21,784 nt of DNA, taken from a virus (Duplodnaviria; Heunggongvirae; Uroviricota; Caudoviricetes). Below the pieces are notes generated by a model. It was not told the origin of the DNA and made no database searches. It was given only the letters and a program-made list of their open reading frames with translations. The DNA lies in IMG/VR virus record IMGVR_UViG_2541047936_000004. One strand, 5' to 3'. The translations under genes and the position numbers were made by a program. Of the stretch, positions 1,697 through 21,784 are shown piece by piece. Numbering within the stretch: the first letter of the stretch is position 1; each line of letters opens with the position of its first letter.

Positions 1697-2396
1697 TATA
1701 TAAAAACCATGAATTCAAGTCATTGATATTTAACGATAAAAATTATTTTATTGTCTTTTTATTAGCCAAAATAAACTTTATTCAACCGTTTGATTTCATT
1801 GACGTTCGTTTTTATTTTGGGGAAAGGTTTTCTCTACCATTTATATCCAAATTACAAGTCTACATTTTATTAACATCTCAATACATGTGAGGCCTTGCAG
1901 ACCTTTGTGAGACCTTATGTGTCTCTGTTTTGTCCCAACTTATGTTAAGAGGCACATAATTAAAAATAAGATAACGATGCCGCCAAGCAGTGCAAAACCT
2001 TGTTTACTCCACGACTGTCTGCCCCATTATCTGCATACATAATTATCCTCCATAACTGAGATAAATGTCGGTTATGAGCGAACAACAGACGTTTAGTTTA
2101 TGATGGCTGTGTCTATACATTAAACATAACATCCATTACCGGCACCGCTTATTAATTGCTATCTGATATTGTCACTAAAAAAATAGGCATTCCCCGATAT
2201 AATAATCACAAAGAAGCTTTTGGTGCTGGCAATCGGTATACCTCATAGTGGACTGCGACTTTCCGGGCACGACAAGGATATATCAATGTATGAGCAGGAA
2301 AATTAGACCGTGGTGCGTCATATGATGACTAAGCACGGATAACAGCTACTTAATTGAAACTATTGATTATATTACAGCCAGTGCCTTATAGGATGG

Positions 2397-3518
2397 TTAG
2401 TCATCAACCGCGACTCCTGCACAATCATGGGCTATTGCCAGCAATTGTTTTTTAATTGCTTTAGCATCTACCGTCATATCTACTGTAGCAAAATGGATCT
2501 TATGTCCCTGAGTGACAACATACTCATTAAGCATATAGCCAACAGCTGGATGAAGTAGAAGACCAGCGGCATTGAGCGAAAGCGGATCCGTCTTGTTCTC
2601 CTGTGTTCTAAGGTAGGTATATAGCTGATAAATATAGCCATTACGTAGTGATTGCTCCCGATGCCAACCCTTTGTCAGAATCGAATTAAATTTGGTATCG
2701 ATAATAATACGCCGCTGGGCAGTCTTGTGTTCCAGAATAATGTCTGACTTCATTGTCGGGAAAATCTCTGCACTACCTGCACTTTGATCGCTCAACGCCC
2801 ATTTCAGCTCTTTCCCTGCAGAGACCTGCCAAGTTGTTTTGGCAAGGTGTACACGATATAAGCCAGCGATACCTTTTTCAAATAGTCTTCTCATCCAGTA
2901 AAGGTTATTTGAGGGCGCAGGTAAAAGATATTGGCCTTGATCTTCGGTCGGCATCAGCAGTTCAAAAGCTAATCGTGCGGCATCGACCATCGGTTTATCT
3001 GCGGCATCATGGCGTCCAAAACGCCACACTGAGGGTAATTCGCGGGGGGCAGGATATCCTCCATTTATCCCCTCACGGCGAAGTGATATTGCCATAAAAT
3101 GGCAATCTGCCGCCAAAGACGGTTTCACTATGATTGAGGCCAGACGTTCTAACGCACAGCGAACATAGCGATTTCGGGGGGTGTTGAGGGTTATGTCTTG
3201 AAAATGGCAGGCAACCTGTCCCCGTTCCAGCAGTTGATGACTGGCAGTATACAGTATGTCAATGCGCCCTCTCACCCGGTTCAGGGCCGCATGACAAGTT
3301 TGGTATCCCATATTTAAATTGCGACGTCGGCGCAGCGTAATCTCATGAAGGAGGATTGTCGCCACCAGGTCGGGGATTTCTGCTGGGTTATCTTCTACTG
3401 CGATCTGATTGCGCCCTAACTGGCGAAACAGATCTGAAGCGTACAGCATCAGCATCCAGATATTTCGCATGGGAATACGTGATGCTGTATGTTGCTCACT
3501 CCCGGTTATTGTCGTCAT
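2397..3518 (-). CDS. mcrC: McrC-family nuclease subunit of a McrBC-type (Type IV) restriction system
   Basis: 373-aa ORF colinear with K-12 McrC: MRNIWMLMLYAS vs VRNIYYMLTYA near the N-terminus, RIIIDTKF vs ILIVDAKYY (PD-D/ExK-type core), YIYQLYTYL vs LYQLMNYL, GLLLHPAV vs GLLIYPHV. Its ATG overlaps the mcrB stop (ATGA). Confidence 0.85.
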   Translation of the reverse strand: MTTITGSEQHTASRIPMRNIWMLMLYASDLFRQLGRNQIAVEDNPAEIPDLVATILLHEITLRRRRNLNMGYQTCHAALNRVRGRIDILYTASHQLLERGQVACHFQDITLNTPRNRYVRCALERLASIIVKPSLAADCHFMAISLRREGINGGYPAPRELPSVWRFGRHDAADKPMVDAARLAFELLMPTEDQGQYLLPAPSNNLYWMRRLFEKGIAGLYRVHLAKTTWQVSAGKELKWALSDQSAGSAEIFPTMKSDIILEHKTAQRRIIIDTKFNSILTKGWHREQSLRNGYIYQLYTYLRTQENKTDPLSLNAAGLLLHPAVGYMLNEYVVTQGHKIHFATVDMTVDAKAIKKQLLAIAHDCAGVAVDD

Positions 3519-5497
3519 TTTGCTAATAACACTTTTCTGGCTTCATCGACTTTATTTGGAGCATCGAACCAATATTCGGCGAGCAAAGGGCAGATCTCTG
3601 TATCAACGACTTGTTCATACCAAGCCTGGGCATCGTTGATTTTTTGGCCGATAGCTGGGGTGACATAGCTGTGACCGATACAAAACTGTGGTCCTAAGGT
3701 AACATCTTTTGCCAGCATATCGTTTAATACCGTCAGTCGAGATTTGATGAATGCTAACATGTCAAAATCAATTGCGTAATTATAATTTACCCAGTTTCTC
3801 CACGCGTCATTAAAAGCTGGCTTTAGATCGATAAACGCGAAACGACGGCGCAGCGCTAGGTCAAGTAGTGCGAGTGAGCGGTCTGCAATATTCATCGTAC
3901 CGATGATATATAGATTCTCAGGAATGTATATTTTTTCATCAGCATTTTTAGGATAGGAAAGAGATAATGCCTCAGTCGGCGTGCGTTTATCTGCTTCCAT
4001 CAACGTGAGTGTTTCACCGAAGATTTGCGCCGGATTGCCACGATTAATCTCTTCAATTATCACCACATATTTCGAGGTAGGATTATTGACTGCAGTTTTG
4101 ATTGCATTTACAAAAGGTCCATCAATTAGCGTCAATTGCCCTTCTTTACCTGGACGCCAGCCTCGAATAAAGTCTTCGTAAGAGAGGTTCGGGTGAAATT
4201 GCACCGCGCTAATACGCTCAGGTGCTTTTTCTCCCATCAAGCAGTACGCCAGACGTCGCGCTAACCAAGTTTTTCCAGTTCCGGGTGGTCCTTGTAATAT
4301 CAGGTTTTTCTTGTCGATCAGGCGCTGAAGTGTGAGTTGGATCTTAGCCTCTTCCAAGAAACAGCCATCCTGCACCAGATGACTGATGTCATAAGGAACG
4401 TGGGTGAGTTTTGGCAACAGCGCACTCTCTTCGACAGTTTCCTCAGTTATCGTCTGGGATTCGTTTTTCTCAAAATTCAGGTATTCATAATTTCCGGACT
4501 CGAGGGACTTTAACTCATCATCATTGCATAGTTTCTGTAGATAAAAGTAGATTGAGCTTGTAACAGTTTTGCTCTCAGGATGCTCTACCTTGAATACGTC
4601 CAAGTAGTTTTCTTCCAACTCCGAAGCAGTGAAATAAGGGCCATTTTTTTTCAGGCATAACGCCTTAATTTTATTCAGTAAAGAGGCTTTCCACGTTCTA
4701 TTTGCCACCTCATCTTTAGACTGGCTAAGATCTGTATTCCACGCTGATAAGGAAAGTTCTGGGAAAGAATGAACCGGATAGTTTGGTTGGGTAAAGACCT
4801 CGTTCAGCGCCCGCATAAGACTCAGGTAACTTTGTCCACTACAGCGACCTTTTGCCCCGTTTTTAATGATCTTAATGTTTAACACTGTCTGAATGTAATA
4901 CTGCGACTGGCTATCTAAAGTGGGGTAGAACCAAGGACGGGTCCAGTACAACCCCATGGTGAGATTCCAACCGACATTCATTACTGTAGAAGCGATGTCA
5001 TATGCGGCAGTGAAGTCTGCAGAGTTAGTATTCTGGTTATCCGCAAAGATCATTGCCTGTGAGAACATTTCCCACAAGCATTCAATGTCATTAGGGTCGC
5101 GTGACTTTTCATAACCAAAGAACCAAGATTTTTGGTTATTCAACAGAGGGATTCCGGCAAAGGAGTCAGGAATCGGTTCGTTCACGCCCAACAAATTCGC
5201 TAGCTTGGCAGCAATAATTTTGCGATTGCTGTCGGTCAAGTTACGATTGAACAAGCCCATAGTAGTAAACGGACAAATGTCTTTTAAGGGAAAGATCTCT
5301 CCCATAATAGATTTGTCCTGCAGATGGGACATTCCTTCCACACCCGAGGCAATTAGATGAATACCTTTGACTAATTCATCTCTACGATTTCGCCAAGTCA
5401 GTAACGCGTTGGCAAAAGCCTCATAAAAACTAGCCCAAGCAAACTTGCCATCATGTTCTGCTGTATCCACGGGAACTCCATTATACTTGTTGAGCAA
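3515..5497 (-). CDS. mcrB: McrB-family GTPase (AAA+) with a long N-terminal region of unknown type
   Basis: 660-aa ORF with a TTG start. Residues ~390-660 align with K-12 McrB: NLILQGPPGTGKTWLARRLAY, VQFHPNLSYEDFIRGWRP, MNIADRSLALLDLALRRRFAFIDL, IGHSY, PLLAEYWFD. The first ~385 residues do not resemble the K-12 McrB N-terminal domain as I recall it. Confidence 0.85.
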   Translation of the reverse strand: MLNKYNGVPVDTAEHDGKFAWASFYEAFANALLTWRNRRDELVKGIHLIASGVEGMSHLQDKSIMGEIFPLKDICPFTTMGLFNRNLTDSNRKIIAAKLANLLGVNEPIPDSFAGIPLLNNQKSWFFGYEKSRDPNDIECLWEMFSQAMIFADNQNTNSADFTAAYDIASTVMNVGWNLTMGLYWTRPWFYPTLDSQSQYYIQTVLNIKIIKNGAKGRCSGQSYLSLMRALNEVFTQPNYPVHSFPELSLSAWNTDLSQSKDEVANRTWKASLLNKIKALCLKKNGPYFTASELEENYLDVFKVEHPESKTVTSSIYFYLQKLCNDDELKSLESGNYEYLNFEKNESQTITEETVEESALLPKLTHVPYDISHLVQDGCFLEEAKIQLTLQRLIDKKNLILQGPPGTGKTWLARRLAYCLMGEKAPERISAVQFHPNLSYEDFIRGWRPGKEGQLTLIDGPFVNAIKTAVNNPTSKYVVIIEEINRGNPAQIFGETLTLMEADKRTPTEALSLSYPKNADEKIYIPENLYIIGTMNIADRSLALLDLALRRRFAFIDLKPAFNDAWRNWVNYNYAIDFDMLAFIKSRLTVLNDMLAKDVTLGPQFCIGHSYVTPAIGQKINDAQAWYEQVVDTEICPLLAEYWFDAPNKVDEARKVLLAK

Positions 5498-5830
5498 TGA
5501 TAATTTATCTGTGTGAGTTTTAACATATTACTATCAGTTATAGAAAAATTTAACTATCCGATACAGAGAGCGGAATGCTGAATTTGACCTGACTTGCTTC
5601 CAACCAATTAAAATCAACTTATTTATCAATTGGTTATTTTGGCACATGGCGGTCATCAAGGCAATATCGCGTTGTCATAAGGTGTCGAGGCTCGGAGGTT
5701 CAAATCCTCTCATACAAAAAATAAATAAAATTAATGACGGTTGGAAATTATTCAATACACTCTCGAAAGTACATCAGCCAACCGCAGCACGTTATTGCAT
5801 ATAACGTTTCTGCGGCATATCACAAAACTA

Positions 5831-6415
5831 TTATTCCATAACAGGGATTGCAGGCCACTCAATATCAGGTGCAGTTGATGTATCAACACGATTCAGCAAC
5901 ACCCGATACTTCTTCCAGGCTTCAAGCAACGAGGTTTCTTCCTCCGTTGCGATTTCCAGATCTGCAGCATCCTGAAGCGGGGCAATATGCTCACTGGCTA
6001 CCTGCATCAGGCTGTTTTTTGTTTCTTCCGCCTCCCGGATCCGGAACAGTTTTTCTGCTTCCGTATCCTTCACCCAGGCTGTGCCGTTCCACTTCTGAAA
6101 CTCCCCTTCCGGGGATAACCAGGTGATATTTTCCGGTAGAGGTCCGAGTTCAGAAATAAATAACGAGTCGCCGGAAGCCACGTCATAGACGGTTTTTCCC
6201 CGATGATCTTCAACGAGATGCCACGATGCCTCATCACTGTTGAAAACAGCCACGAAGCCTACCGGAATATCTGGCGGTGCAATATAGGTACTGTTTGCTG
6301 GCAGACCTGTATGAGGCGGAATATATGCGTCACCTTCACCAATAAATTCATTAGTTCCGGCCAGCAGATTATAAATTTTTATGGTCCGTGGTTGTTCACT
6401 CATTCTGAATGCCAT
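5831..6415 (-). CDS. tfa: Tail fibre assembly protein (lambda Tfa-like)
   Basis: 194-aa ORF nearly identical to my recollection of lambda Tfa ([43 protein letters not shown]...[11 protein letters not shown]); start overlaps the stf stop. Confidence 0.9.
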
Positions 6416-10880: not shown

Positions 10881-11207
10881 ATGACTAAAAATACTCGTTT
10901 TTCCCCCGAAGTCCGTCAACGGGCAGTCCGTATGGTTCTGGAAAGTCAGGATGAATATGACTCACAGTGGGCGGCAATTTGTTCCATTGCCCCAAAGATT
11001 GGCTGTACGCCGGAGACTCTGCGTGTCTGGGTTCGCCAGCATGAGCGGGATACCGGGGGCGGTGATGGTGGGCTCACCAGCGCTGAACGTCAGCGTCTGA
11101 AAGAGCTGGAACGTGAAAATCGTGAACTGCGCCGCAGTAACGATATCCTTCGCCAGGCTTCCGCTTATTTTGCGAAGGCGGAGTTCGACCGCCTCTGGAA
11201 AAAATGA
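10881..11207 (+). CDS. IS629 OrfA (helix-turn-helix transposase N-terminal part)
   Basis: 108-aa ORF inside the IS; ends in an A-rich slippery region overlapping the orfB start. Confidence 0.85.
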
Positions 11208-12094
11208 TGCCACTGCTGGATAAGCTGCGTGAGCAGTACGGGGTCGGACCGGTATGCAGCGAACTGCATATTGCCCCGTCAACGTATTACCATTGTCAGC
11301 AACAGCGACATCATCCGGATAAACGCAGTGCCCGTGCGCAGCACGATGACTGGCTGAAGAGAGAGATACAGCGCGTATACGATGAAAATCATCAGGTGTA
11401 CGGTGTGCGTAAAGTCTGGCGTCAGTTGTTACGGGAAGGAATCAGGGTGGCCAGATGTACAGTGGCGCGCCTCATGGCGGTTATGGGACTTGCCGGTGTT
11501 CTCCGGGGTAAAAAGGTCCGTACGACCATCAGCCGGAAAGCCGTTGCCGCAGGCGACCGCGTAAACCGTCAGTTCGTGGCAGAACGACCTGACCAGCTGT
11601 GGGTGGCTGATTTTACTTACGTCAGCACATGGCGGGGCTTCGTCTATGTGGCGTTCATCATTGATGTGTTTGCCGGATACATCGTGGGGTGGCGGGTCTC
11701 ATCGTCCATGGAAACGACATTCGTGCTGGATGCACTGGAGCAGGCGTTATGGGCCCGTCGACCGTCCGGCACGGTCCATCACAGTGATAAAGGTTCTCAG
11801 TATGTATCGCTGGCCTACACACAGCGGCTTAAGGAAGCCGGATTACTGGCATCAACAGGAAGTACAGGCGACTCGTATGACAACGCGATGGCGGAGAGCA
11901 TCAATGGTCTTTACAAAGCGGAGGTAATACACCGTAAGAGCTGGAAAAACCGTGCAGAAGTGGAACTGGCCACACTCACGTGGGTGGACTGGTATAACAA
12001 TCGACGATTGCTGGAAAGGCTGGGCCATACTCCTCCGGCAGAAGCAGAAAAAGCTTATTATGCTTCCATCGGAAACGATGATCTGGCAGCCTGA
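11204..12094 (+). CDS. IS629 OrfB (DDE transposase catalytic part)
   Basis: 296-aa ORF in the -1 frame relative to orfA with an integrase-core-like sequence (HSDKGSQY...DNAMAES); identical copy at 19058-19948 on the minus strand. Confidence 0.85.
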
Positions 12095-13018: not shown

Positions 13019-14545
13019 TCAAAAATAAACCTCACCATCAACCATATATTTGAGAGTACTTATCGCCTGCTGGGCGGATATTGTTTTCATTAAAGGATAG
13101 TGTTTAAAAACAATGCCATTCATAAAATAGATATCACAGGTTTTATTATCTGTATTGATTATGATTTTTTCGAATGTTTTATAGGCAAGTGTACGACATA
13201 GCTCTCGCCCATTTTTACTGGTTAAGTCAATAGCATGAAAATCACCAAGTGAACTCACCGCTTTACTCTTCAAAGTTTTTAATGATACAGAAGCCCTTCG
13301 TAATTCCTTATCTAATACTCTGATTTTTTCTGCTATAGCGGTAACTTCAGGCGCAACAGATAATGCAGCAATTAAATTATTAATTTTCATCTGGAGCTCA
13401 ATAATTTTCAACTCTAAAGTTTCATTAGCATCTTTCTTGTTTTCAACTGGTTGGATTTTACTACAATTAAAAAGCAACTCATTAATGATATTATAATCAA
13501 CCAAATCTCTCTTTATTGATGGCCTGTCACATCGATGCAGTCTTCTCATCGGACAAACATAATAGCCATGCAAACTTCCAGATACCGCATGAACAATCAT
13601 GGTATTACCACAAGCCTCGCACTTCATAACTGTTCGAAGTAGATTTATCAACATAGGATTTTTGCTACTATTGCTAATACCAAAAGGTGCCAACCGAATT
13701 TCCTGCACAGCGTAAAACAAATCATCTGATATGACTCTGGGATAATAGCCAGCGATTTCACTTATTCCTTTACCTCTTGCACGATATGAAGGTACGCATA
13801 TACCTATCAGAGCTTTATTCGCTAATAATTTTTCAATTACAGAAGGTCCCCATGCACTTTCTTTTCCTGAGAAATTCTTTACAGCATGATCATTTAAATA
13901 CTTGGCTATTGCATTCAATGAGCGCCTTTCCATCCTGAGTTTAAAAATTAGCTCAATAGTTTTCACCCTGTCGGGGTCTGGAACAAAAGCCGTTCTTTTG
14001 TCATCCAATGAGAGCCATCTCGGACAAGACGCCGTCATAATCGTGCCTGACTCCAGTGCATCCTGCCGTTTTTTCTTCCATGATAATTTAACCCGACTTG
14101 ACTTTATCTCGCTTTCTTCATTTGCCCTTTGTGCTATAAGTATGGCTTTTATTAATGAATATGGCTCATTCAATGAGTCAATATTATAGACTGTATTATC
14201 GCAAAGAGTTATAACATCAATACCGTGATTCAAAATCAATTTCAGACGCTCAATCGCCTCACCGACTTTTTCTCTTGAAAGTCTGTCCAGACTTTCAACT
14301 AACAATGTAGTCCCTGGCAATATATAACCATGTTCTATAGCATCTAAAAATTCCGAAAAAGCTCCTGATTGTGCATGCTTTCCATTGAATGCGCTTAACC
14401 CCAAATCTTCATACGTTACGGTATCAAGGTAATAATCACTATTTACCTTTAGCCATTCAGTAATAAGCCTTCTCTGGCGGTTTAATGAATCACCAGACAT
14501 CTGACTTGGTGATGAAAATCGCATATATGCTATGGCTTTTTTCAT
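13019..14545 (-). CDS. ybcK: Large serine recombinase (YbcK-like)
   Basis: 508-aa ORF with an N-terminal resolvase-type motif (AIAYMRFSSPSQ, catalytic Ser context), a long recombinase domain and a Cys-rich segment (CEACGN...YYVCPMRRLHRC). It lies directly downstream of emrE, as ybcK does in K-12 DLP12, and has the same length as I recall for YbcK. Confidence 0.75.
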   Translation of the reverse strand: MKKAIAYMRFSSPSQMSGDSLNRQRRLITEWLKVNSDYYLDTVTYEDLGLSAFNGKHAQSGAFSEFLDAIEHGYILPGTTLLVESLDRLSREKVGEAIERLKLILNHGIDVITLCDNTVYNIDSLNEPYSLIKAILIAQRANEESEIKSSRVKLSWKKKRQDALESGTIMTASCPRWLSLDDKRTAFVPDPDRVKTIELIFKLRMERRSLNAIAKYLNDHAVKNFSGKESAWGPSVIEKLLANKALIGICVPSYRARGKGISEIAGYYPRVISDDLFYAVQEIRLAPFGISNSSKNPMLINLLRTVMKCEACGNTMIVHAVSGSLHGYYVCPMRRLHRCDRPSIKRDLVDYNIINELLFNCSKIQPVENKKDANETLELKIIELQMKINNLIAALSVAPEVTAIAEKIRVLDKELRRASVSLKTLKSKAVSSLGDFHAIDLTSKNGRELCRTLAYKTFEKIIINTDNKTCDIYFMNGIVFKHYPLMKTISAQQAISTLKYMVDGEVYF

Positions 14546-14800
14546 GGTGACACCTGCTAAAGTATGCTTTTATAAACCTTAGTGGTGAGATATGATTTTT
14601 GTTTAATTTTTATTTAAAAAGACAATTAAGGTCACATTATCTTGAATATACAACAATAATCGTATTGCAATTTTCTTACACCATAATCTTGAAAGCACAA
14701 AAGAATGAATAAAAACTAAAGACATTAACAAAAAGCATAAAACGAGGCCCATATAAATATACGAGCCTCCATATTTTAGTCGTTTAAAAACAAATTATTT

Positions 14801-15133
14801 TTAATGTGGTGTGCTTCGTGACAATAAATTAATAACCAACACACCGGCACAAATCAACATCATGCCTATAATGGCTGGCAGGTCCAACCGTTGGCCGAAA
14901 AATCCCCATGATAGTAAGCTAATCAGGACAATACCGACTCCTGACCAGATAGCATAAGCAATCCCTGTAGGAATATAAGCCAGCGTCTGAGCTAATAACC
15001 AGAATGATGCACAATAACAAATAATTGTACCAACAGATGGCCATAACCGTGTAAAACCTTCTGAAAACTTCATTAAGGTTGTACCAATGACCTCTGCAAG
15101 TATTGCACCACCAAGATAAATATAAGGATTCAT
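14801..15133 (-). CDS. emrE: Small multidrug resistance efflux transporter EmrE
   Basis: 110-aa protein MNPYIYLGGAILAEVIGTTLMKFSEGF...LSRSTPH matches EmrE as I recall it. The track ORF extends 18 codons further upstream; I trimmed to the canonical ATG, which has an AGGA upstream. Confidence 0.9.
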   Translation of the reverse strand: MNPYIYLGGAILAEVIGTTLMKFSEGFTRLWPSVGTIICYCASFWLLAQTLAYIPTGIAYAIWSGVGIVLISLLSWGFFGQRLDLPAIIGMMLICAGVLVINLLSRSTPH

Positions 15134-15200
15134 AGCATATTCTTTCCTGTTCAAACTGGAGAGAATTGTACTACAGTTTGAACTCAACTCACCTGTTTCA

Positions 15201-15503
15201 TCATTGTGTACCCATTGATGTTCTTTTATATACCCTCAATACCCGTTTCATCGCGGCACTCTGGCGACACTCCTTAAAAATCAAATTCGTGCTCACCTTT
15301 CCTTCCCATTCTTCTCTGGTAGCGAACCGATAATACACCGTTCGCCAGACCTTACCATCAACGACTAGGATTCCTGCCCGCGCCATTTTAGCCGCAGCCT
15401 GATTTATGCTGGTTACCGTTGCGCCTGTTACCGCGGCAACGTCCTGCGCACAGAATTTCTTATGAGTCCCCAGGTAATGAATAATTGACTCTTTGCCCGT
15501 CAT
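15201..15503 (-). CDS. ren: Lambda Ren-like protein
   Basis: MTGKESIIHYLGTHKKFCAQDVAAVTGATVTSINQAAAKMARAGILVVDGKVWRTVYYRFATREE matches lambda Ren closely; overlaps the P stop. Confidence 0.85.
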   Translation of the reverse strand: MTGKESIIHYLGTHKKFCAQDVAAVTGATVTSINQAAAKMARAGILVVDGKVWRTVYYRFATREEWEGKVSTNLIFKECRQSAAMKRVLRVYKRTSMGTQ

Positions 15504-16201
15504 ACCCTTGCTCCTTTCAGCCCAAACTTAGCTTTGATTTCTGCGATCTTCGCCAGAGCCTGTGCACGATTTAGAGGTCTACCGCCCATGACAGGAAGTT
15601 GTTTTACTGGTTCAGGTATAGCCTCACCACGGTTAATTCGTGCGGTCATACAGGACAGTTCATCGGCAGCCTTGCGCCGTAATTCCGCGTCAGTCAACGC
15701 ATTGGCCCGCATGTTCTGATACAGGTTGGTAACCAGCCAGTAGTGCGCGTTTGATTTCCACGGATAAGACTCTGCATCCGGATACAGCCCGCGCTTCCGG
15801 CAATACTCGTAAACCATATCAACCAGCTCGCTGGCGTTTGGCAGCCCGGCGGTAACGGATGCTTCTTCCCGGCACCAGGCGACAAACTGCCCGGGTGATG
15901 GCAGGAATGGTCGATTCTGCCGACGGGCTACGCGCATTCCAGCGTTAACCTGTTCCATTGTGGTGATCCCGTTTTCCCGAAAAGCCAGCACCCACTGGCG
16001 GCGGATTTCGTTCAGTTCATTCTGGTCACGGTTAGCCAGGCTCGCCGGGAAAGTTGCCAGTAACTGGCTGAACACACCGTTGATGATCTGCGCTACCTGC
16101 TGTACCTGTGGCTTTTCGTCGTACTGTTCCGGCATGTTGTTGGCGATCCGACGCATCTGCTCACGGTCAAAGTTAACCATCTGTGCGGCGATGTTTTTCA
16201 T
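15500..16201 (-). CDS. P: Replication protein P (lambda P-like, DnaB loader)
   Basis: 233-aa ORF essentially colinear with lambda P (MKNIAAQMVNFDREQMRRIANNMPEQYDEK...AKFGLKGA), with the same length. Confidence 0.9.
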   Translation of the reverse strand: MKNIAAQMVNFDREQMRRIANNMPEQYDEKPQVQQVAQIINGVFSQLLATFPASLANRDQNELNEIRRQWVLAFRENGITTMEQVNAGMRVARRQNRPFLPSPGQFVAWCREEASVTAGLPNASELVDMVYEYCRKRGLYPDAESYPWKSNAHYWLVTNLYQNMRANALTDAELRRKAADELSCMTARINRGEAIPEPVKQLPVMGGRPLNRAQALAKIAEIKAKFGLKGARV

Positions 16202-16440
16202 AGATCCACCCCGTAAATCCAGTCAGTGTTTGTCAGGTCGAGTTTTGGTTTGCCGACTGTCACGCCAGCCTGTTGCTTGTTCCGGTTGATTTCGAGCTGG
16301 GTCCACTTGTCGCGGAGTTTGGCCGGACTCAGCACGTTACCGGACCAGAAGTTGTCCTGGCAGGCCCAGCGGAACAGTACACACATGTCGCGGTGGTTAC
16401 GTCCATCACGTTCACGCATCAGACGGATATCGTTACCGGG
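16198..16440 (-). pseudogene. O: Replication protein O, C-terminal fragment only
   Basis: The minus-strand ORF ends ...[56 protein letters not shown], which is the lambda O C-terminus. The N-terminal origin-binding part is absent; the upstream boundary is the exo junction. Confidence 0.8.
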
Positions 16441-17088
16441 ATCGACGTGAGAGCTGTCGAACAGGGGGATGATGCGTGGCACAAATTACGGCTCGGCGTC
16501 ATCACCGCTTCAGAAGTTCACAACGTGATAGCAAAGCCCCGCTCAGGAAAGAAGTGGCCTGACATGAAAATGTCCTACTTCCACACCCTGCTTGCCGAGG
16601 TTTGCACCGGTGTGGCTCCGGAAGTTAACGCTAAAGCACTGGCCTGGGGAAAACAGTACGAGAACGACGCCAGAACCCTGTTTGAGTTCACTTCCGGCGT
16701 AAATGTTATTGAATCCCCGATCATCTATCGCGACGAAAGTATGCGCACCGCCTGCTCTCCCGATGGTTTATGCAGTGACGGCAATGGCCTTGAACTGAAA
16801 TGCCCGTTTACCTCCCGGGATTTCATGAAGTTCCGGCTCGGTGGTTTCGAGGCCATAAAGTCGGCTTACATGGCCCAGGTGCAGTACAGCATGTGGGTGA
16901 CGCGAAAAGATGCCTGGTACTTTGCCAACTATGACCCGCGTATGAAGCGTGAAGGCCTGCATTATGTCGTGGTTGAGCGGGATGAAAAGTACATGGCGAA
17001 TTTTGACGAGATGGTGCCGGAGTTCATCGAAAAAATGGACGAGGCACTGGCTGAAATTGGTTTTGTATTTGGGGAGCAATGGCGATGA
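16430..17088 (+). pseudogene. exo: Lambda exonuclease (Exo/RedA), lacking its start and first ~10 codons
   Basis: [56 protein letters not shown]...[14 protein letters not shown] is colinear with lambda Exo from about residue 10 to the end. The apparent N-terminal 55 codons of the track ORF are antisense O sequence. Confidence 0.85.
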
Positions 17089-17243
17089 CGCATCCTCACG
17101 ATAATATCCGGGTAGGCGCGATCACTTTCGTCTACTCCATTACAAAGCGAGGCTGGGTATTTCCCGGCCTTTCTGTTATCAGAAATCCACTGAAAGCACA
17201 GCGGCTGGCTGAGAAGATAAATAACAAACAGGAGGATATATGA
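17085..17243 (+). CDS. Possible 52-codon small ORF translationally coupled between exo and the DGQHR gene
   Basis: Its ATG overlaps the exo stop (ATGA), its TGA overlaps the DGQHR ATG (ATGA), there are no internal stops, and GGGGAG lies 8 nt upstream. Product [52 protein letters not shown]. Below the track's length threshold. Confidence 0.3.
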
Positions 17244-18304
17244 GTCAGGTTGGTAATCATTCATTCGAATTTCCGGCATCGCAAGGTGTACAGGGTGGTA
17301 CTGTTACACTCTTCCTTACCATACCAGGAAGATCGCTGGCTCGTTTCCTCGCTTCAGATAATTACGGCCATACACTGGAACGCTCTCAGCGAGAAATTAA
17401 TCCAAATCGAGTACGAAAATTTTTAAATTATCTCACTAACGCAGACTCAAGAAATGAGCCTTTTATCATTCCCCCTCTCGTAGGTAACTGTGATTCGAAT
17501 ATAGAATTTGTACCGTTTGGCAACACAAATGTTGGTATAGCCAGAATTCCCCTCGACGCCGAAATAAAACTTTTTGATGGTCAACATCGTGCAGCTGGCA
17601 TTGAGATATTTTGCCGAAGTTCCCCATCAACGCTCATGGTTCCCATGATGCTTACAATGAATCTGCCGCTAAAAACCCGGCAGCAGTTCTTTTCGGACAT
17701 AAATAACAACGTTTCTAAGCCATCAGCGACCATCAATATGGCGTATAACGGCCGGGATGATATTGCTCAGGGAATGATATCCTTCCTGACCCAACATACT
17801 GTATTTGCCGATATAACCGATTTTGAACACAACGTAGTGCCATTAAAAAGTAATATGTGGGTGAGTTTCAAGGCACTCACTGATGCAACGTCAAAGTTCG
17901 CTAGGAACGGCAATCAACAACTTGAAATGGGATATATAGAATCTGTCTGGGAGGCATGGATTACACTAACTCAGATTGACTCAATCCGACATGGTGTACA
18001 CCACGCTACGTACAAGCGCGATTATATTCAGTTCCATGGAGTAATGATTAACGCTTTCGGTTTTGCGGTTCAACAGATGATGGTTAATCATTCCATCGCA
18101 GAAATAACTTCTATGATCGAAAAACTATGTGCAACTACCAGCTCTGCAGAAAGAGAGGATTTTTTTCTGATGGATAACTGGGCGGGGATCTGCACGAAAG
18201 CCAGCCAGGAAAAACTATCTGTTATTGCCAATGTGGCAGCGCAGAAAGCAGCAGCAAACAGACTGATACAAGCTTTTACCAAAGGAAGTCTGGAAACAAC
18301 TTAA
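17240..18304 (+). CDS. DGQHR-domain protein (DndB-like), solitary
   Basis: 354-aa ORF with a strong ribosome-binding site (CAGGAGGA-N5-ATG). It contains the exact motif FDGQHRAAGIE at residues ~112-122 and a downstream QQFFSDINNN block, consistent with the DGQHR/DndB family as I recall it. No dndACDE-like genes are nearby. Confidence 0.7.
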   Translation: MSQVGNHSFEFPASQGVQGGTVTLFLTIPGRSLARFLASDNYGHTLERSQREINPNRVRKFLNYLTNADSRNEPFIIPPLVGNCDSNIEFVPFGNTNVGIARIPLDAEIKLFDGQHRAAGIEIFCRSSPSTLMVPMMLTMNLPLKTRQQFFSDINNNVSKPSATINMAYNGRDDIAQGMISFLTQHTVFADITDFEHNVVPLKSNMWVSFKALTDATSKFARNGNQQLEMGYIESVWEAWITLTQIDSIRHGVHHATYKRDYIQFHGVMINAFGFAVQQMMVNHSIAEITSMIEKLCATTSSAEREDFFLMDNWAGICTKASQEKLSVIANVAAQKAAANRLIQAFTKGSLETT

Positions 18305-18457
18305 TGAATCAACATTGTCTCATATCAGCATGCTGTACGGCGTCTTTAAGGAACGGTGAGCATGAAAAACAAAATCATCATGGAGCTACAGGCTCCTTTT
18401 TTATTATTCGCATTCACCCTCAAGCGTATTAACCAACAATTCAGGGATTAATGAAAG

Positions 18458-18723: not shown

Positions 18724-18963
18724 ATGTTCAGAATCATTTTTCCTAACACCTGGTACGTCGACCACCACGGCACTCCCTGCAAAATCCTGCGTTCTACCCA
18801 CAACAAAGTTCACTACATCCGAAAAGGCAGAACATGTATCGCCAGCATGTTCCGCTTTAATCATGACTTTGAACCTGTGAATAAAGCTGATGCAGATCGG
18901 ATAGCAGAAGAGATCGAAACGGCAGAACACATTAAGAAGTTACGTGCCATACGCAGGAAATAG
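18724..18963 (+). CDS. Hypothetical 79-aa protein
   Basis: ORF in the same orientation as the early-left operon, ending 52 bp before IS629 copy 2; no family recognised. Confidence 0.35.
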   Translation: MFRIIFPNTWYVDHHGTPCKILRSTHNKVHYIRKGRTCIASMFRFNHDFEPVNKADADRIAEEIETAEHIKKLRAIRRK

Positions 18964-19057: not shown

Positions 19058-19948
19058 TCAGGCTGCCAGATCATCGTTTCCGATGGAAGCATAATAAGCT
19101 TTTTCTGCTTCTGCCGGAGGAGTATGGCCCAGCCTTTCCAGCAATCGTCGATTGTTATACCAGTCCACCCACGTGAGTGTGGCCAGTTCCACTTCTGCAC
19201 GGTTTTTCCAGCTCTTACGGTGTATTACCTCCGCTTTGTAAAGACCATTGATGCTCTCCGCCATCGCGTTGTCATACGAGTCGCCTGTACTTCCTGTTGA
19301 TGCCAGTAATCCGGCTTCCTTAAGCCGCTGTGTGTAGGCCAGCGATACATACTGAGAACCTTTATCACTGTGATGGACCGTGCCGGACGGTCGACGGGCC
19401 CATAACGCCTGCTCCAGTGCATCCAGCACGAATGTCGTTTCCATGGACGATGAGACCCGCCACCCCACGATGTATCCGGCAAACACATCAATGATGAACG
19501 CCACATAGACGAAGCCCCGCCATGTGCTGACGTAAGTAAAATCAGCCACCCACAGCTGGTCAGGTCGTTCTGCCACGAACTGACGGTTTACGCGGTCGCC
19601 TGCGGCAACGGCTTTCCGGCTGATGGTCGTACGGACCTTTTTACCCCGGAGAACACCGGCAAGTCCCATAACCGCCATGAGGCGCGCCACTGTACATCTG
19701 GCCACCCTGATTCCTTCCCGTAACAACTGACGCCAGACTTTACGCACACCGTACACCTGATGATTTTCATCGTATACGCGCTGTATCTCTCTCTTCAGCC
19801 AGTCATCGTGCTGCGCACGGGCACTGCGTTTATCCGGATGATGTCGCTGTTGCTGACAATGGTAATACGTTGACGGGGCAATATGCAGTTCGCTGCATAC
19901 CGGTCCGACCCCGTACTGCTCACGCAGCTTATCCAGCAGTGGCATCAT
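19058..19948 (-). CDS. IS629 OrfB transposase (copy 2)
   Basis: Protein identical to 11204-12094. Confidence 0.85.
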
Positions 19949-20271
19949 TTTTTCCAGAGGCGGTCGAACTCCGCCTTCGCAAAATAAGCGGAAGCCTGGC
20001 GAAGGATATCGTTACTGCGGCGCAGTTCACGATTTTCACGTTCCAGCTCTTTCAGACGCTGACGTTCAGCGCTGGTGAGCCCACCATCACCGCCCCCGGT
20101 ATCCCGCTCATGCTGGCGAACCCAGACACGCAGAGTCTCCGGCGTACAGCCAATCTTTGGGGCAATGGAACAAATTGCCGCCCACTGTGAGTCATATTCA
20201 TCCTGACTTTCCAGAACCATACGGACTGCCCGTTGACGGACTTCGGGGGAAAAACGAGTATTTTTAGTCAT
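19945..20271 (-). CDS. IS629 OrfA (copy 2)
   Basis: Protein identical to 10881-11207. Confidence 0.85.
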
Positions 20272-20415: not shown

Positions 20416-20652
20416 ATGTCTCGACTAATCACTTTACAGGACTGGGCTAAAGAAGAATTTGGGGACTTAGCACCAAGTGAGCGAGTTCTGAAAAAATACG
20501 CGCAAGGGAAAATGATGGCCCCACCCGCTATAAAAGTTGGTCGCTACTGGATGATTGACCGAAATTCCCGTTTTGTAGGAACGCTTGCAGAACCGCAACT
20601 CCCAATAAACGCAAACCCAAAACTCCAACGGATAATCGCTGATGGCTGCTAG
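20416..20652 (+). CDS. xis: Excisionase (Xis-like)
   Basis: 78-aa ORF immediately upstream of and overlapping int, with a strong ribosome-binding site (AAGAGGAGGA); the LITLQDW...PPAIKVGRYW pattern resembles the lambda Xis family (LTLQEW...PPPVKDGREY). Confidence 0.7.
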   Translation: MSRLITLQDWAKEEFGDLAPSERVLKKYAQGKMMAPPAIKVGRYWMIDRNSRFVGTLAEPQLPINANPKLQRIIADGC

Positions 20653-21784
20653 ACCCCGATCTCACAAAATCTCTATACCCAATTTATATTGCAAATTAGA
20701 TAAGCGAACCGGAAAGGTATATTGGCAATACAAACATCCACTATCCGGTCGTTTTCATAGCTTAGGAACTGATGAGAATGAAGCAAAACAAGTTGCTACT
20801 GAAGCAAATACCATTATTGCTGAACAACGTGCCAGACAAATATTAAGCGTCAATGAGCGTCTGGAAAGAATGAAAGGCAGGCGCTCAGACATTACGGTGA
20901 CAGAATGGCTTGATAAATATATTTCTATCCAGGAGGACAGGCTGCAACATAATGAACTAAGACCCAACTCCTATCGGCAAAAAGGCAAACCCATTCGTCT
21001 TTTCCGTGAGCATTGTGGAATGCAACACCTCAAGGATATTACCGCACTTGATATTGCCGAAATAATTGATGCTGTAAAGGCTGAAGGTCATAACAGGATG
21101 GCGCAAGTCGTGAGAATGGTGTTGATCGACGTCTTCAAAGAAGCACAACACGCAGGACATGTTCCGCCAGGATTTAACCCTGCGCAGGCAACAAAACAAC
21201 CGCGAAATCGAGTAAACCGCCAAAGATTGTCACTGCTCGAATGGCAGGCAATATTTGAAAGCGTAAGCAGACGGCAGCCCTATTTAAAATGCGGCATGCT
21301 ACTTGCTCTTGTTACTGGACAACGTTTAGGCGATATCTGCAATTTGAAATTCTCTGATATATGGGACGACATGTTGCACATTACTCAGGAAAAAACCGGT
21401 TCAAAACTTGCTATTCCGCTTAACCTGAAATGCGATGCTCTGAATATTACCCTTCGTGAAGTTATATCTCAGTGCAGGGATGCTGTTGTTAGTAAATATC
21501 TGGTCCATTACCGTCACACTACCTCTCAAGCAAACAGAGGAGACCAGGTTTCTGCAAATACTCTGACAACGGCTTTTAAAAAGGCCCGGGAAAAATGTGG
21601 CATAAAATGGGAGCAAGGAACTGCGCCCACATTTCATGAGCAGCGATCTCTCTCAGAACGGTTATATCGGGAACAGGGTCTGGATACGCAAAAGTTGTTA
21701 GGCCATAAATCCAGAAAAATGACCGACCGATACAATGATGATCGTGGTAAAGACTGGATTATCGTAGATATCAAAACAGCATAG
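20642..21784 (+). CDS. int: Tyrosine integrase, lambda Int family
   Basis: 380-aa ORF colinear with lambda Int: RPRSH..PNLY near the N-terminus, LALVTGQRLGDICNLKFSDI vs LAVVTGQRVGDLCEMKWSDI, PTFHEQRSLSERLY vs PTFHELRSLSARLY, LLGHKS...RYNDDRG vs LLGHKS...QYRDDRG (catalytic Tyr context). The stop is the last codon of the window. Confidence 0.9.
   Translation: MAARPRSHKISIPNLYCKLDKRTGKVYWQYKHPLSGRFHSLGTDENEAKQVATEANTIIAEQRARQILSVNERLERMKGRRSDITVTEWLDKYISIQEDRLQHNELRPNSYRQKGKPIRLFREHCGMQHLKDITALDIAEIIDAVKAEGHNRMAQVVRMVLIDVFKEAQHAGHVPPGFNPAQATKQPRNRVNRQRLSLLEWQAIFESVSRRQPYLKCGMLLALVTGQRLGDICNLKFSDIWDDMLHITQEKTGSKLAIPLNLKCDALNITLREVISQCRDAVVSKYLVHYRHTTSQANRGDQVSANTLTTAFKKAREKCGIKWEQGTAPTFHEQRSLSERLYREQGLDTQKLLGHKSRKMTDRYNDDRGKDWIIVDIKTA

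Follow-up and report, generated by a model that had tools for sequence, protein, structure and literature searches.

The stretch of DNA analyzed here (the window; 21,784 nucleotides, IMG/VR virus record IMGVR_UViG_2541047936_000004, Caudoviricetes) carries, within a defective lambdoid prophage of Escherichia coli, an intact gene for an orphan protein with a DGQHR domain. We find that this gene travels as a cargo cassette in the early operons of temperate phages and that its product is a genuine member of the DGQHR/DndB superfamily. Judged by its sequence and its neighbors, the protein is not an orthologue of DndB and not a stray piece of a Dnd system; it belongs to a paralogous clade. We favor, tentatively and with somewhat less than even confidence, the reading that it is an early-made, nucleotide-gated DNA-binding protein serving a phage program of DNA modification or anti-restriction. 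The gene itself was already catalogued in RefSeq and PHROGs; what is new is the definition of a phage-borne orphan clade, the delimitation of an exact cassette that alternates with Dam in the lambdoid exo-xis slot, and the linkage of relatives to a helix-turn-helix (HTH) protein and interchangeable methyltransferases.

The gene and its immediate features are as follows.

17240 to 18304, plus strand: gene for the DGQHR protein, an intact open reading frame (ORF) of 354 amino acids with an ATG start
17576 to 17590, plus strand: codons of the DGQHR pentapeptide, residues 113 to 117, invariant in the family
17230 to 17235, plus strand: Shine-Dalgarno sequence AGGAGG, 4 bases 5' of the ATG
17079 to 17243, plus strand: DUF1317 ORF, 54 amino acids, PHROG 1998
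18382 to 18406, plus strand: terminator-like hairpin (18382 to 18396) with a T-run, 3' of the DGQHR gene

A first-pass annotation, made from the sequence alone, had described a 354-residue protein with an exact DGQHR motif, a strong ribosome-binding site, and tight coupling to the upstream ORF, and all three are borne out by these features. The stop codon of DUF1317 overlaps the DGQHR start as ATGA, and thus the two are translationally coupled; the ATG start is backed by colinear N termini across 33 homologues. The identical protein in RefSeq is WP_000084449.1, named "DGQHR domain-containing protein."

Profile searches leave little room for the possibility, raised in that annotation, that the motif match is spurious. 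The protein scores 188.8 bits against NCBIfam TIGR03187 (DGQHR domain; cut-off, 58.85 bits; E, 1.5e-55) and 158.2 bits against Pfam PF14072 (DndB; cut-off, 29.1 bits), which is its only Pfam match, and 126 bits against the PADLOC DndB model. The DGQHR match is far beyond that of a chance pentapeptide. A 90%-clustered collection holds 247 homologues at E ≤ 1e-5, about 355 amino acids long, spread across Enterobacterales and all named "DGQHR domain-containing protein"; some phage records label relatives "putative DNA-sulfur modification protein." A profile search of 1.84 billion representatives returned 831 clusters at E ≤ 1e-3, 79 of them at E ≤ 1e-30. Only about a dozen clusters are close and full length, so the family is a small clade within a large superfamily.

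Conservation was read from an alignment of 34 sequences with 52 to 73% identity to the query. Q50-R51, D113-G-Q-H-R117, and F150/F151...N155 are invariant in the 34 family members, and a QR pair, DGQHR, and FxxxN make up the published three-motif signature of the domain (PMC4619093). The invariant or nearly invariant segments are ERSQRE (47 to 52), PPLVGNC (78 to 84), FDGQHR (112 to 117), RQQFFSDINNNVSKP (147 to 161), TDFEHNVVP (193 to 201), SFKA (209 to 212), and YKxDYIQFHxVMINAFG (258 to 274).

On the DndB equivalog model TIGR03233, the protein reaches 106.9 bits against a cut-off of 328 and its phage relatives reach 110 to 206 bits, whereas a positive control, the DndB encoded beside dndC-dndD-dndE in Salmonella Infantis SARB27, scores 466.7 bits. 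Identity to the SARB27 protein is 25% over 281 residues (E, 1e-23). Around homologues in about 100 loci from phages, prophages, and genomes we found no dnd genes; the neighbors are phage early, recombination, xis, and int genes. Since the profile match is strong and the homologues lie outside dnd clusters, the description "orphan DndB-like protein" stands.

These data also bear on whether the protein is a DndB mimic that counters the phosphorothioate-based Dnd or Ssp defense of a host, perhaps by binding the dnd promoter, Dnd proteins, or phosphorothioated DNA. Its homology to DndB fits such a role, as do the co-option of Dnd-module homologues by phages against Dnd (a PAPS-reductase-Dam fusion) and the existence of other anti-Dnd proteins, of which JSS1_004 is an example (PMC12345140). 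However, no locus ties the family to dnd or ssp genes, the family falls far below the DndB equivalog cut-off, and repression of a host dndBCDE operon would be of no obvious help to an infecting phage. Action on phosphorothioate DNA, or against Dnd or Ssp, which the first-pass annotation had proposed, thus found no link, the recurring neighbors being DNA methyltransferases and an HTH protein; we regard the mimic as very unlikely.

The behavior of the gene as a cassette emerged from a survey of 5,426 complete E. coli genomes. The flanks of the slot were matched in 3,668 of these; the DGQHR gene was present in only 283 of the 5,426 (5.2%). The exchanged segment can be placed precisely.

17244 to 18323, plus strand: swapped accessory cassette; prophages with a different allele are similar up to 17243 and again from 18324

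From this break, the swapped DNA comes to 1,080 base pairs (bp), i.e., the ORF plus 20 bp. Elsewhere among E. coli prophages, the slot holds either a phage Dam methyltransferase with a small ORF or DUF1382 with a ZapA-like ORF. The terminator-like hairpin is not part of the cassette, because it lies in DNA common to all slot alleles. We found no sigma-70-like promoter 5' of the DGQHR gene, the sole plus-strand match falling within the ORF. A moron with its own promoter and terminator was therefore considered and rejected. A 42-residue ORF (18304 to 18432, plus strand) begins at the DGQHR stop codon and crosses the hairpin at 18382 to 18396; it lies mostly in allele-shared DNA, and nothing suggests that it is a gene.

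An AlphaFold2 model built from the alignment (mean pLDDT, 81.4; pTM, 0.63) combines an N-terminal half of mixed alpha/beta structure with a helical C-terminal half. Its fold matches, with their scores, are PadC (8.1), SbnI (6.1), sulfiredoxin (6.1), SerK (5.9), KorB (5.5), pNOB8 ParB (5.3), Atu1540 (5.2), and BrxU and SspE (4.3 each). A near-identical list has been published for DpdB (PMC10164549). The comparison with DndB and ParB-like folds advised by the first-pass annotation thus yielded a well-supported prediction: the N-terminal domain (approximately residues 1 to 170) is modeled as a ParB/sulfiredoxin nucleotide-binding fold, and the C-terminal domain is modeled as all helical. For DpdB, whose ATPase activity has been shown, the DGQQR motif has been equated with the nucleotide-binding GxxR box of ParB (PMC10164549), and by analogy the DGQHR pentapeptide may correspond to the same box (PMC10164549, PMC4619093). 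A bacterial DndB-like protein binds both ATP and GTP (PMC12704722).

The ParB/sulfiredoxin fold and the name of the Pfam family are what speak for a partition-type ParB or a decayed fragment of a dnd cluster. This reading is effectively refuted. The element is an integrated prophage without a ParA gene; the protein has no match to PF02195/ParBc or TIGR00180 and no recognizable HTH, and there is no ParA-like ORF in the window. A dnd fragment is ruled out by the full-length ORF, which is colinear with the 247 homologues, by cassette edges that coincide with the ORF, and by the lack of dnd neighbors.

A further alternative takes the protein for a prophage defense or exclusion factor, a sensor or nuclease of the DUF262/GmrSD/SspE type that would depend on a nucleotide and recognize the modified or foreign DNA of superinfecting phages. 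The protein resembles viral GmrSD-N-like proteins (viral structure matches were other DndB-like and GmrSD-N-like proteins, at low TM-score), PADLOC counts DndB among defense-system proteins, and a McrBC-like Type IV system lies in the same prophage remnant. The conserved T-D-F-E-H-N-V-V-P segment (193 to 201) is superficially like the (D/E)HxxP nuclease motif (PMC4619093, PMC10164549), but its spacing is E196-H197-x3-P201, that is, E-H-x3-P and not E-H-x2-P, and the His is replaced by Asn in family members P0117 and P0120 and by Lys in a real DndB. Because of the wrong spacing and the nonconserved His, we rejected an HNH-type nuclease acting through this segment. There is also no DUF262, DUF1524, or HNH match and no match to other PADLOC models, PD-lambda systems included; expression in a lysogen is not expected, because no sigma-70-like promoter lies upstream. 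Vibrio phages of 83 kb, in whose inspected stretches no integrase was seen, carry distant homologues. The exclusion function floated in the first-pass annotation survives in weakened form, given the missing promoter and these Vibrio homologues, and we judge the defense reading quite unlikely.

To compare neighborhoods, we took homologues from IMG/VR, GenBank phages, and species-representative genomes and clustered the ORFs around them; a scan of genome contigs with narrow peptide patterns gave 15 loci. Relatives occupy the early operon, flanked by recombination genes and xis/int, in prophages of Salmonella (SPN1S type), Klebsiella, Serratia, and others; the exceptions are distant (∼40%) Xenorhabdus and Buttiauxella homologues, which sit in other putative mobile islands (loci L098 to L104). 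In the closest relatives (73 to 74% identity) and in SPN1S-type phages (65%), the next gene downstream encodes an MT-A70 methyltransferase, with a 4-bp overlap in SPN1S. In a Klebsiella/Citrobacter/Enterobacter-type lineage, the order is DGQHR, HTH protein, and methyltransferase. The HTH protein is either c3 (154 amino acids, no Pfam match) or c27 (179 amino acids, with Sigma70_r4/GcrA-like repeats), both matching phrog_323, and the methyltransferase after it is Dam (PF05869), MT-A70, or N6_N4 plus C5. Across relatives, four downstream methyltransferase families were thus seen (MT-A70, Dam PF05869, N6_N4, and C5). When lineages were dereplicated at 95% identity, a methyltransferase stood no more than two genes downstream in about 10 of 31, often with overlapping stop and start codons.

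The methyltransferase appears to be the exchangeable part of this arrangement. Within one lineage of 25 loci whose DGQHR proteins are ≥95% identical, the methyltransferase family changes while DGQHR and c3 or c27 stay. All 20 c3 loci in IMG/VR (≥90% identity) have DGQHR directly upstream, one of them only as a deletion remnant, and in all 20 the methyltransferase has an identical start point that overlaps the c3 stop, a precise recombination boundary for methyltransferase swapping. The GenBank phage collection gave no match to c3.

Other loci add detail. The c3 loci with swapped methyltransferases are L109 to L126 (IMG/VR; about 1937 to 5660 in each). In L115 (2098 to 3004), a RecT-like gene is fused to the last ∼85 DGQHR codons, with c3 and the N6_N4 plus C5 methyltransferases intact downstream. 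Nine loci (L077, L079, L082 to L085, L089, L090, and L095) have a canonical ParB-like gene (HTH_ParB, DGHHR/EGHRR motif) directly upstream and lack a methyltransferase downstream, so that two distinct ParB-fold genes stand in tandem in these phages. As read by eye and not profile-tested, the Xenorhabdus homologues adjoin genes resembling the lipoprotein and transglycosylase genes of conjugative elements, and the Buttiauxella homologues lie near an ORF resembling an ArdB/KlcA-type antirestriction gene.

Farther afield, Vibrio prophage Va_PF430-3_p42 encodes a 33%-identical, 539-residue homologue followed by a 500-residue methyltransferase and int, and the homologue of a Pseudoalteromonas phage has PAPS-reductase genes and a C5 methylase as its neighbors. 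The C-terminal extensions of such long homologues (430 to 540 amino acids) are unrelated to c3/c27 (best E, 0.17) and have no Pfam domain. The 83-kb phages of Vibrio crassostreae carry their distant homologue near ligase and RdgC genes; the occurrence of homologues in these phages, with no integrase seen where inspected, favors a function benefiting the phage.

DndB is an ATP-modulated DNA-binding regulator that limits phosphorothioation, and ParB, KorB, and HerB are CTP-gated DNA clamps. Like these characterized relatives, the DGQHR protein, probably dimeric, would bind DNA under the control of a bound nucleoside triphosphate. An intact phage would make it early, from pL, during infection or induction, and it could then assist or control DNA-modifying enzymes, which in relatives would be the adjacent HTH protein and the interchangeable methyltransferase; alternatively, it may interfere with a modification-based defense of the host. 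The E. coli allele would act alone or with host enzymes, because it has no adjacent partner. DpdB, another characterized relative, is an ATPase without which DpdA does not insert preQ0 into DNA, although the two form no stable complex (PMC10164549). That phages borrow Dnd-module homologues next to methylases has a precedent in a Vibrio phage DndC-like PAPS-reductase-Dam fusion, which is an anti-Dnd factor (bioRxiv 10.1101/2021.05.05.442762).

A more specific version starts from the ParB-methyltransferase fusions often found on phages and in the leading regions of plasmids (PMC12704722, PMC7736820). DGQHR, the HTH protein, and the interchangeable methyltransferase could together be an undescribed phage anti-restriction module, a split version of these fusions, in which the DGQHR protein would be a nucleotide-gated clamp that loads, spreads, or activates the methyltransferase encoded behind it. 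Incoming or replicating phage DNA would then be protectively methylated fast enough to outrun host restriction, and the orphan E. coli allele would work with a host enzyme such as Dam or serve as a stand-alone shield. We hold this split module to be doubtful.

Several observations weigh against the modification or anti-restriction reading. About two-thirds of the dereplicated lineages have no methyltransferase nearby, and the window copy, like all E. coli copies, has neither an adjacent methyltransferase nor an HTH partner. The window gene is followed by TraR/DksA and DUF4222; the DGQHR-HTH-methyltransferase arrangement occurs only in relatives of 62 to 74% identity. Because the lineages are related prophages, the methyltransferase-linked counts are not independent, and because the slot can hold Dam without DGQHR, the association could reflect a shared "anti-restriction hotspot" and not a partnership. 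Nucleotide binding and DNA binding are predicted from fold and family only, and the strongly conserved loop at residues 157 to 168 is modeled with low confidence. A link to ParB was not detectable at the sequence level: PDB searches with the protein and with the 34-sequence profile gave no meaningful match, and profile-profile comparison (hhalign) with the ParB-like proteins encoded beside some homologues gave a probability of 0.5% and an E-value of 0.11. The full-length PHROG match (phrog_7901, 716.8 bits) is labeled "unknown function," and in the literature we found no study of WP_000084449 or of phage-borne DGQHR proteins.

The same neighborhoods must be weighed against a role as a nucleotide-gated transcription regulator or host reprogrammer unrelated to restriction, which would bind specific phage or host sites early after induction or infection. 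KorB acts as a DNA-binding regulator on RK2, and the E. coli allele needs no neighboring partner, as would suit a regulator. DndB represses by promoter binding (PMC4507180, PMC12707154), and HerB (YfjB), an early orphan ParB-like protein from the F-plasmid leading region, binds chromosomal sites and reprograms host transcription (PMC13370423). The DGQHR protein, however, has no recognizable HTH domain (its Pfam match is PF14072 only), the cassette has no noncoding DNA that could hold a cognate site, and the recurrent, tightly coupled methyltransferase and HTH neighbors would be left unexplained. We therefore see a regulator of this kind as possible, if on the unlikely side, and retain the DNA-modification or anti-restriction program as our favored reading.

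The prophage in the window, a defective lambdoid one, occupies the icd (e14) site of E. coli. Around the DGQHR gene, 1,885 bp are 100% identical to strain FORC 064, whose int abuts icd. The plus-strand order is exo' (truncated), DUF1317, DGQHR, TraR/DksA, DUF4222, IS3 (on the minus strand), xis, and int.

16198 to 16435, minus strand: C-terminal fragment of replication gene O, reversed, abutting exo' at ∼16435
16436 to 17088, plus strand: lambda-type exonuclease gene exo', without approximately its first 10 codons
18458 to 18676, plus strand: TraR/DksA-type zinc-finger gene, a downstream neighbor conserved in all slot alleles
18724 to 18963, plus strand: DUF4222 gene, a conserved downstream neighbor
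19058 to 20271, minus strand: IS3-family element (orfA/orfB, ALIL frameshift pseudoknot) between DUF4222 and xis
20416 to 20652, plus strand: excisionase gene xis of the icd-site prophage
20642 to 21784 (window end), plus strand: integrase gene int of the icd-site prophage

Other large ORFs in the window are DUF1398, iraM, McrC, an AAA_5 ATPase, tail-fiber genes, IS3, a serine recombinase, emrE, ren, and P. The placement of the gene between exo and xis and the lack of dndA-, dndC-, dndD-, or dndE-like genes in the window, both reported by the first-pass annotation, are confirmed, with the correction that exo is truncated and the start of the operon is deleted. Similarity to the lambda ren-P-O region stops at ∼16435, where the O fragment meets exo at about codon 10; we read this junction as the mark of a deletion that took out pL, N, the immunity region (cI/cro), gam, and bet. 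A long ORF at 16273 to 17088 is an artifact of reading through the junction.

Likely expression with the early-left genes, as the annotation had it, therefore does not hold for the window copy: the pL-to-bet part is gone, and no sigma-70-like promoter lies upstream. Because pL is lost, expression of this copy is doubtful; it is probably transcriptionally orphaned and may be silent though its ORF is intact. Other E. coli strains have near-identical copies (one or two residue differences) downstream of cI-rexA-rexB-kilR-gam, and for these the gene order makes pL-driven early expression plausible.

Some features of the remnant lie outside this question. The IS3 element at 19058 to 20271 is absent from this point in strain FORC 064, and a second IS3-family copy at 10881 to 12094 (plus strand) is inverted relative to it; each has an ALIL pseudoknot (Rfam, 121.5 bits). 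On the minus strand at 2397 to 5497, a McrC homologue (373 amino acids, PF10117) and a 660-residue AAA_5 ATPase form, by their sequences, a McrBC-like Type IV restriction pair, which adjoins tail-fiber genes at the outer end of the same icd-site remnant. The corresponding end of e14 in K-12 holds mcrA, so genes for modification-dependent restriction may have a hotspot here. The icd-site element also contains, at 13019 to 16201 on the minus strand, a gene for a large serine recombinase (508 amino acids) together with emrE, ren, and full-length lambda P; this module is known from DLP12, and the remnant would thus be a mosaic. Within a tail-fiber-assembly gene, at 5874 to 6072 (minus strand), there is a match to Rfam family IS009 (214 bits).

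To our knowledge, DndB-type proteins have been described only in an accessory role, within phosphorothioation systems. DpdB, a distant relative of the DGQQR/DUF262 type, has a comparable accessory role in 7-deazaguanine systems. A lone cassette clade that alternates with Dam and is tied to swappable methyltransferases suggests a wider role for the ParB fold in phage DNA modification and escape from restriction. If the DGQHR protein does help methyltransferases, it would offer a mechanistic reading for the numerous ParB-methyltransferase fusions of phages and plasmids; if it does not, it is an ordinary uncharacterized phage accessory gene. Because ∼5% of complete E. coli genomes carry it, the gene is easy to test genetically, and we regard it as a modest, cheap, testable lead for anti-restriction biology rather than a surprise.

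Among known systems, DndB and DpdB come first: the protein has the domain, and probably the basic chemistry, in common with both, yet by the membership criteria tested it belongs to neither. With DndB it shares PF14072, the DGQHR domain, and the QR, DGQHR, and FxxxN motifs, is colinear over ∼280 residues, and probably has nucleotide-modulated DNA binding in common. Unlike DndB, it is never found beside dndC/D/E and forms a single-gene cassette in phage early operons. DpdB has DGQQR where this family has DGQHR; no sequence-level match between them was seen, and among the Pfam-annotated neighbors and clustered neighbor sets there is no TGT-like dpdA gene near family members. The N-terminal nucleotide-binding domain of DUF262/GmrSD proteins, SspE, and BrxU is related and bears a motif of the DGQQR or DGQHR type (PMC4619093), at weak structural similarity, whereas the DGQHR protein has no DUF262 match and no DUF1524/HNH domain or motif. 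HerB (YfjB) and KorB differ in having a canonical ParB CTP-binding domain and an HTH, neither of which the DGQHR protein matches at the sequence level. The ParB-methyltransferase fusions differ in that here the genes are separate, often with an HTH gene between them, the ParB fold is of the DGQHR subtype, and the window copy has no methyltransferase; the likeness lies in a ParB-fold module and a DNA methyltransferase combined in early-expressed regions of mobile elements, as adjacent genes in the DGQHR relatives.

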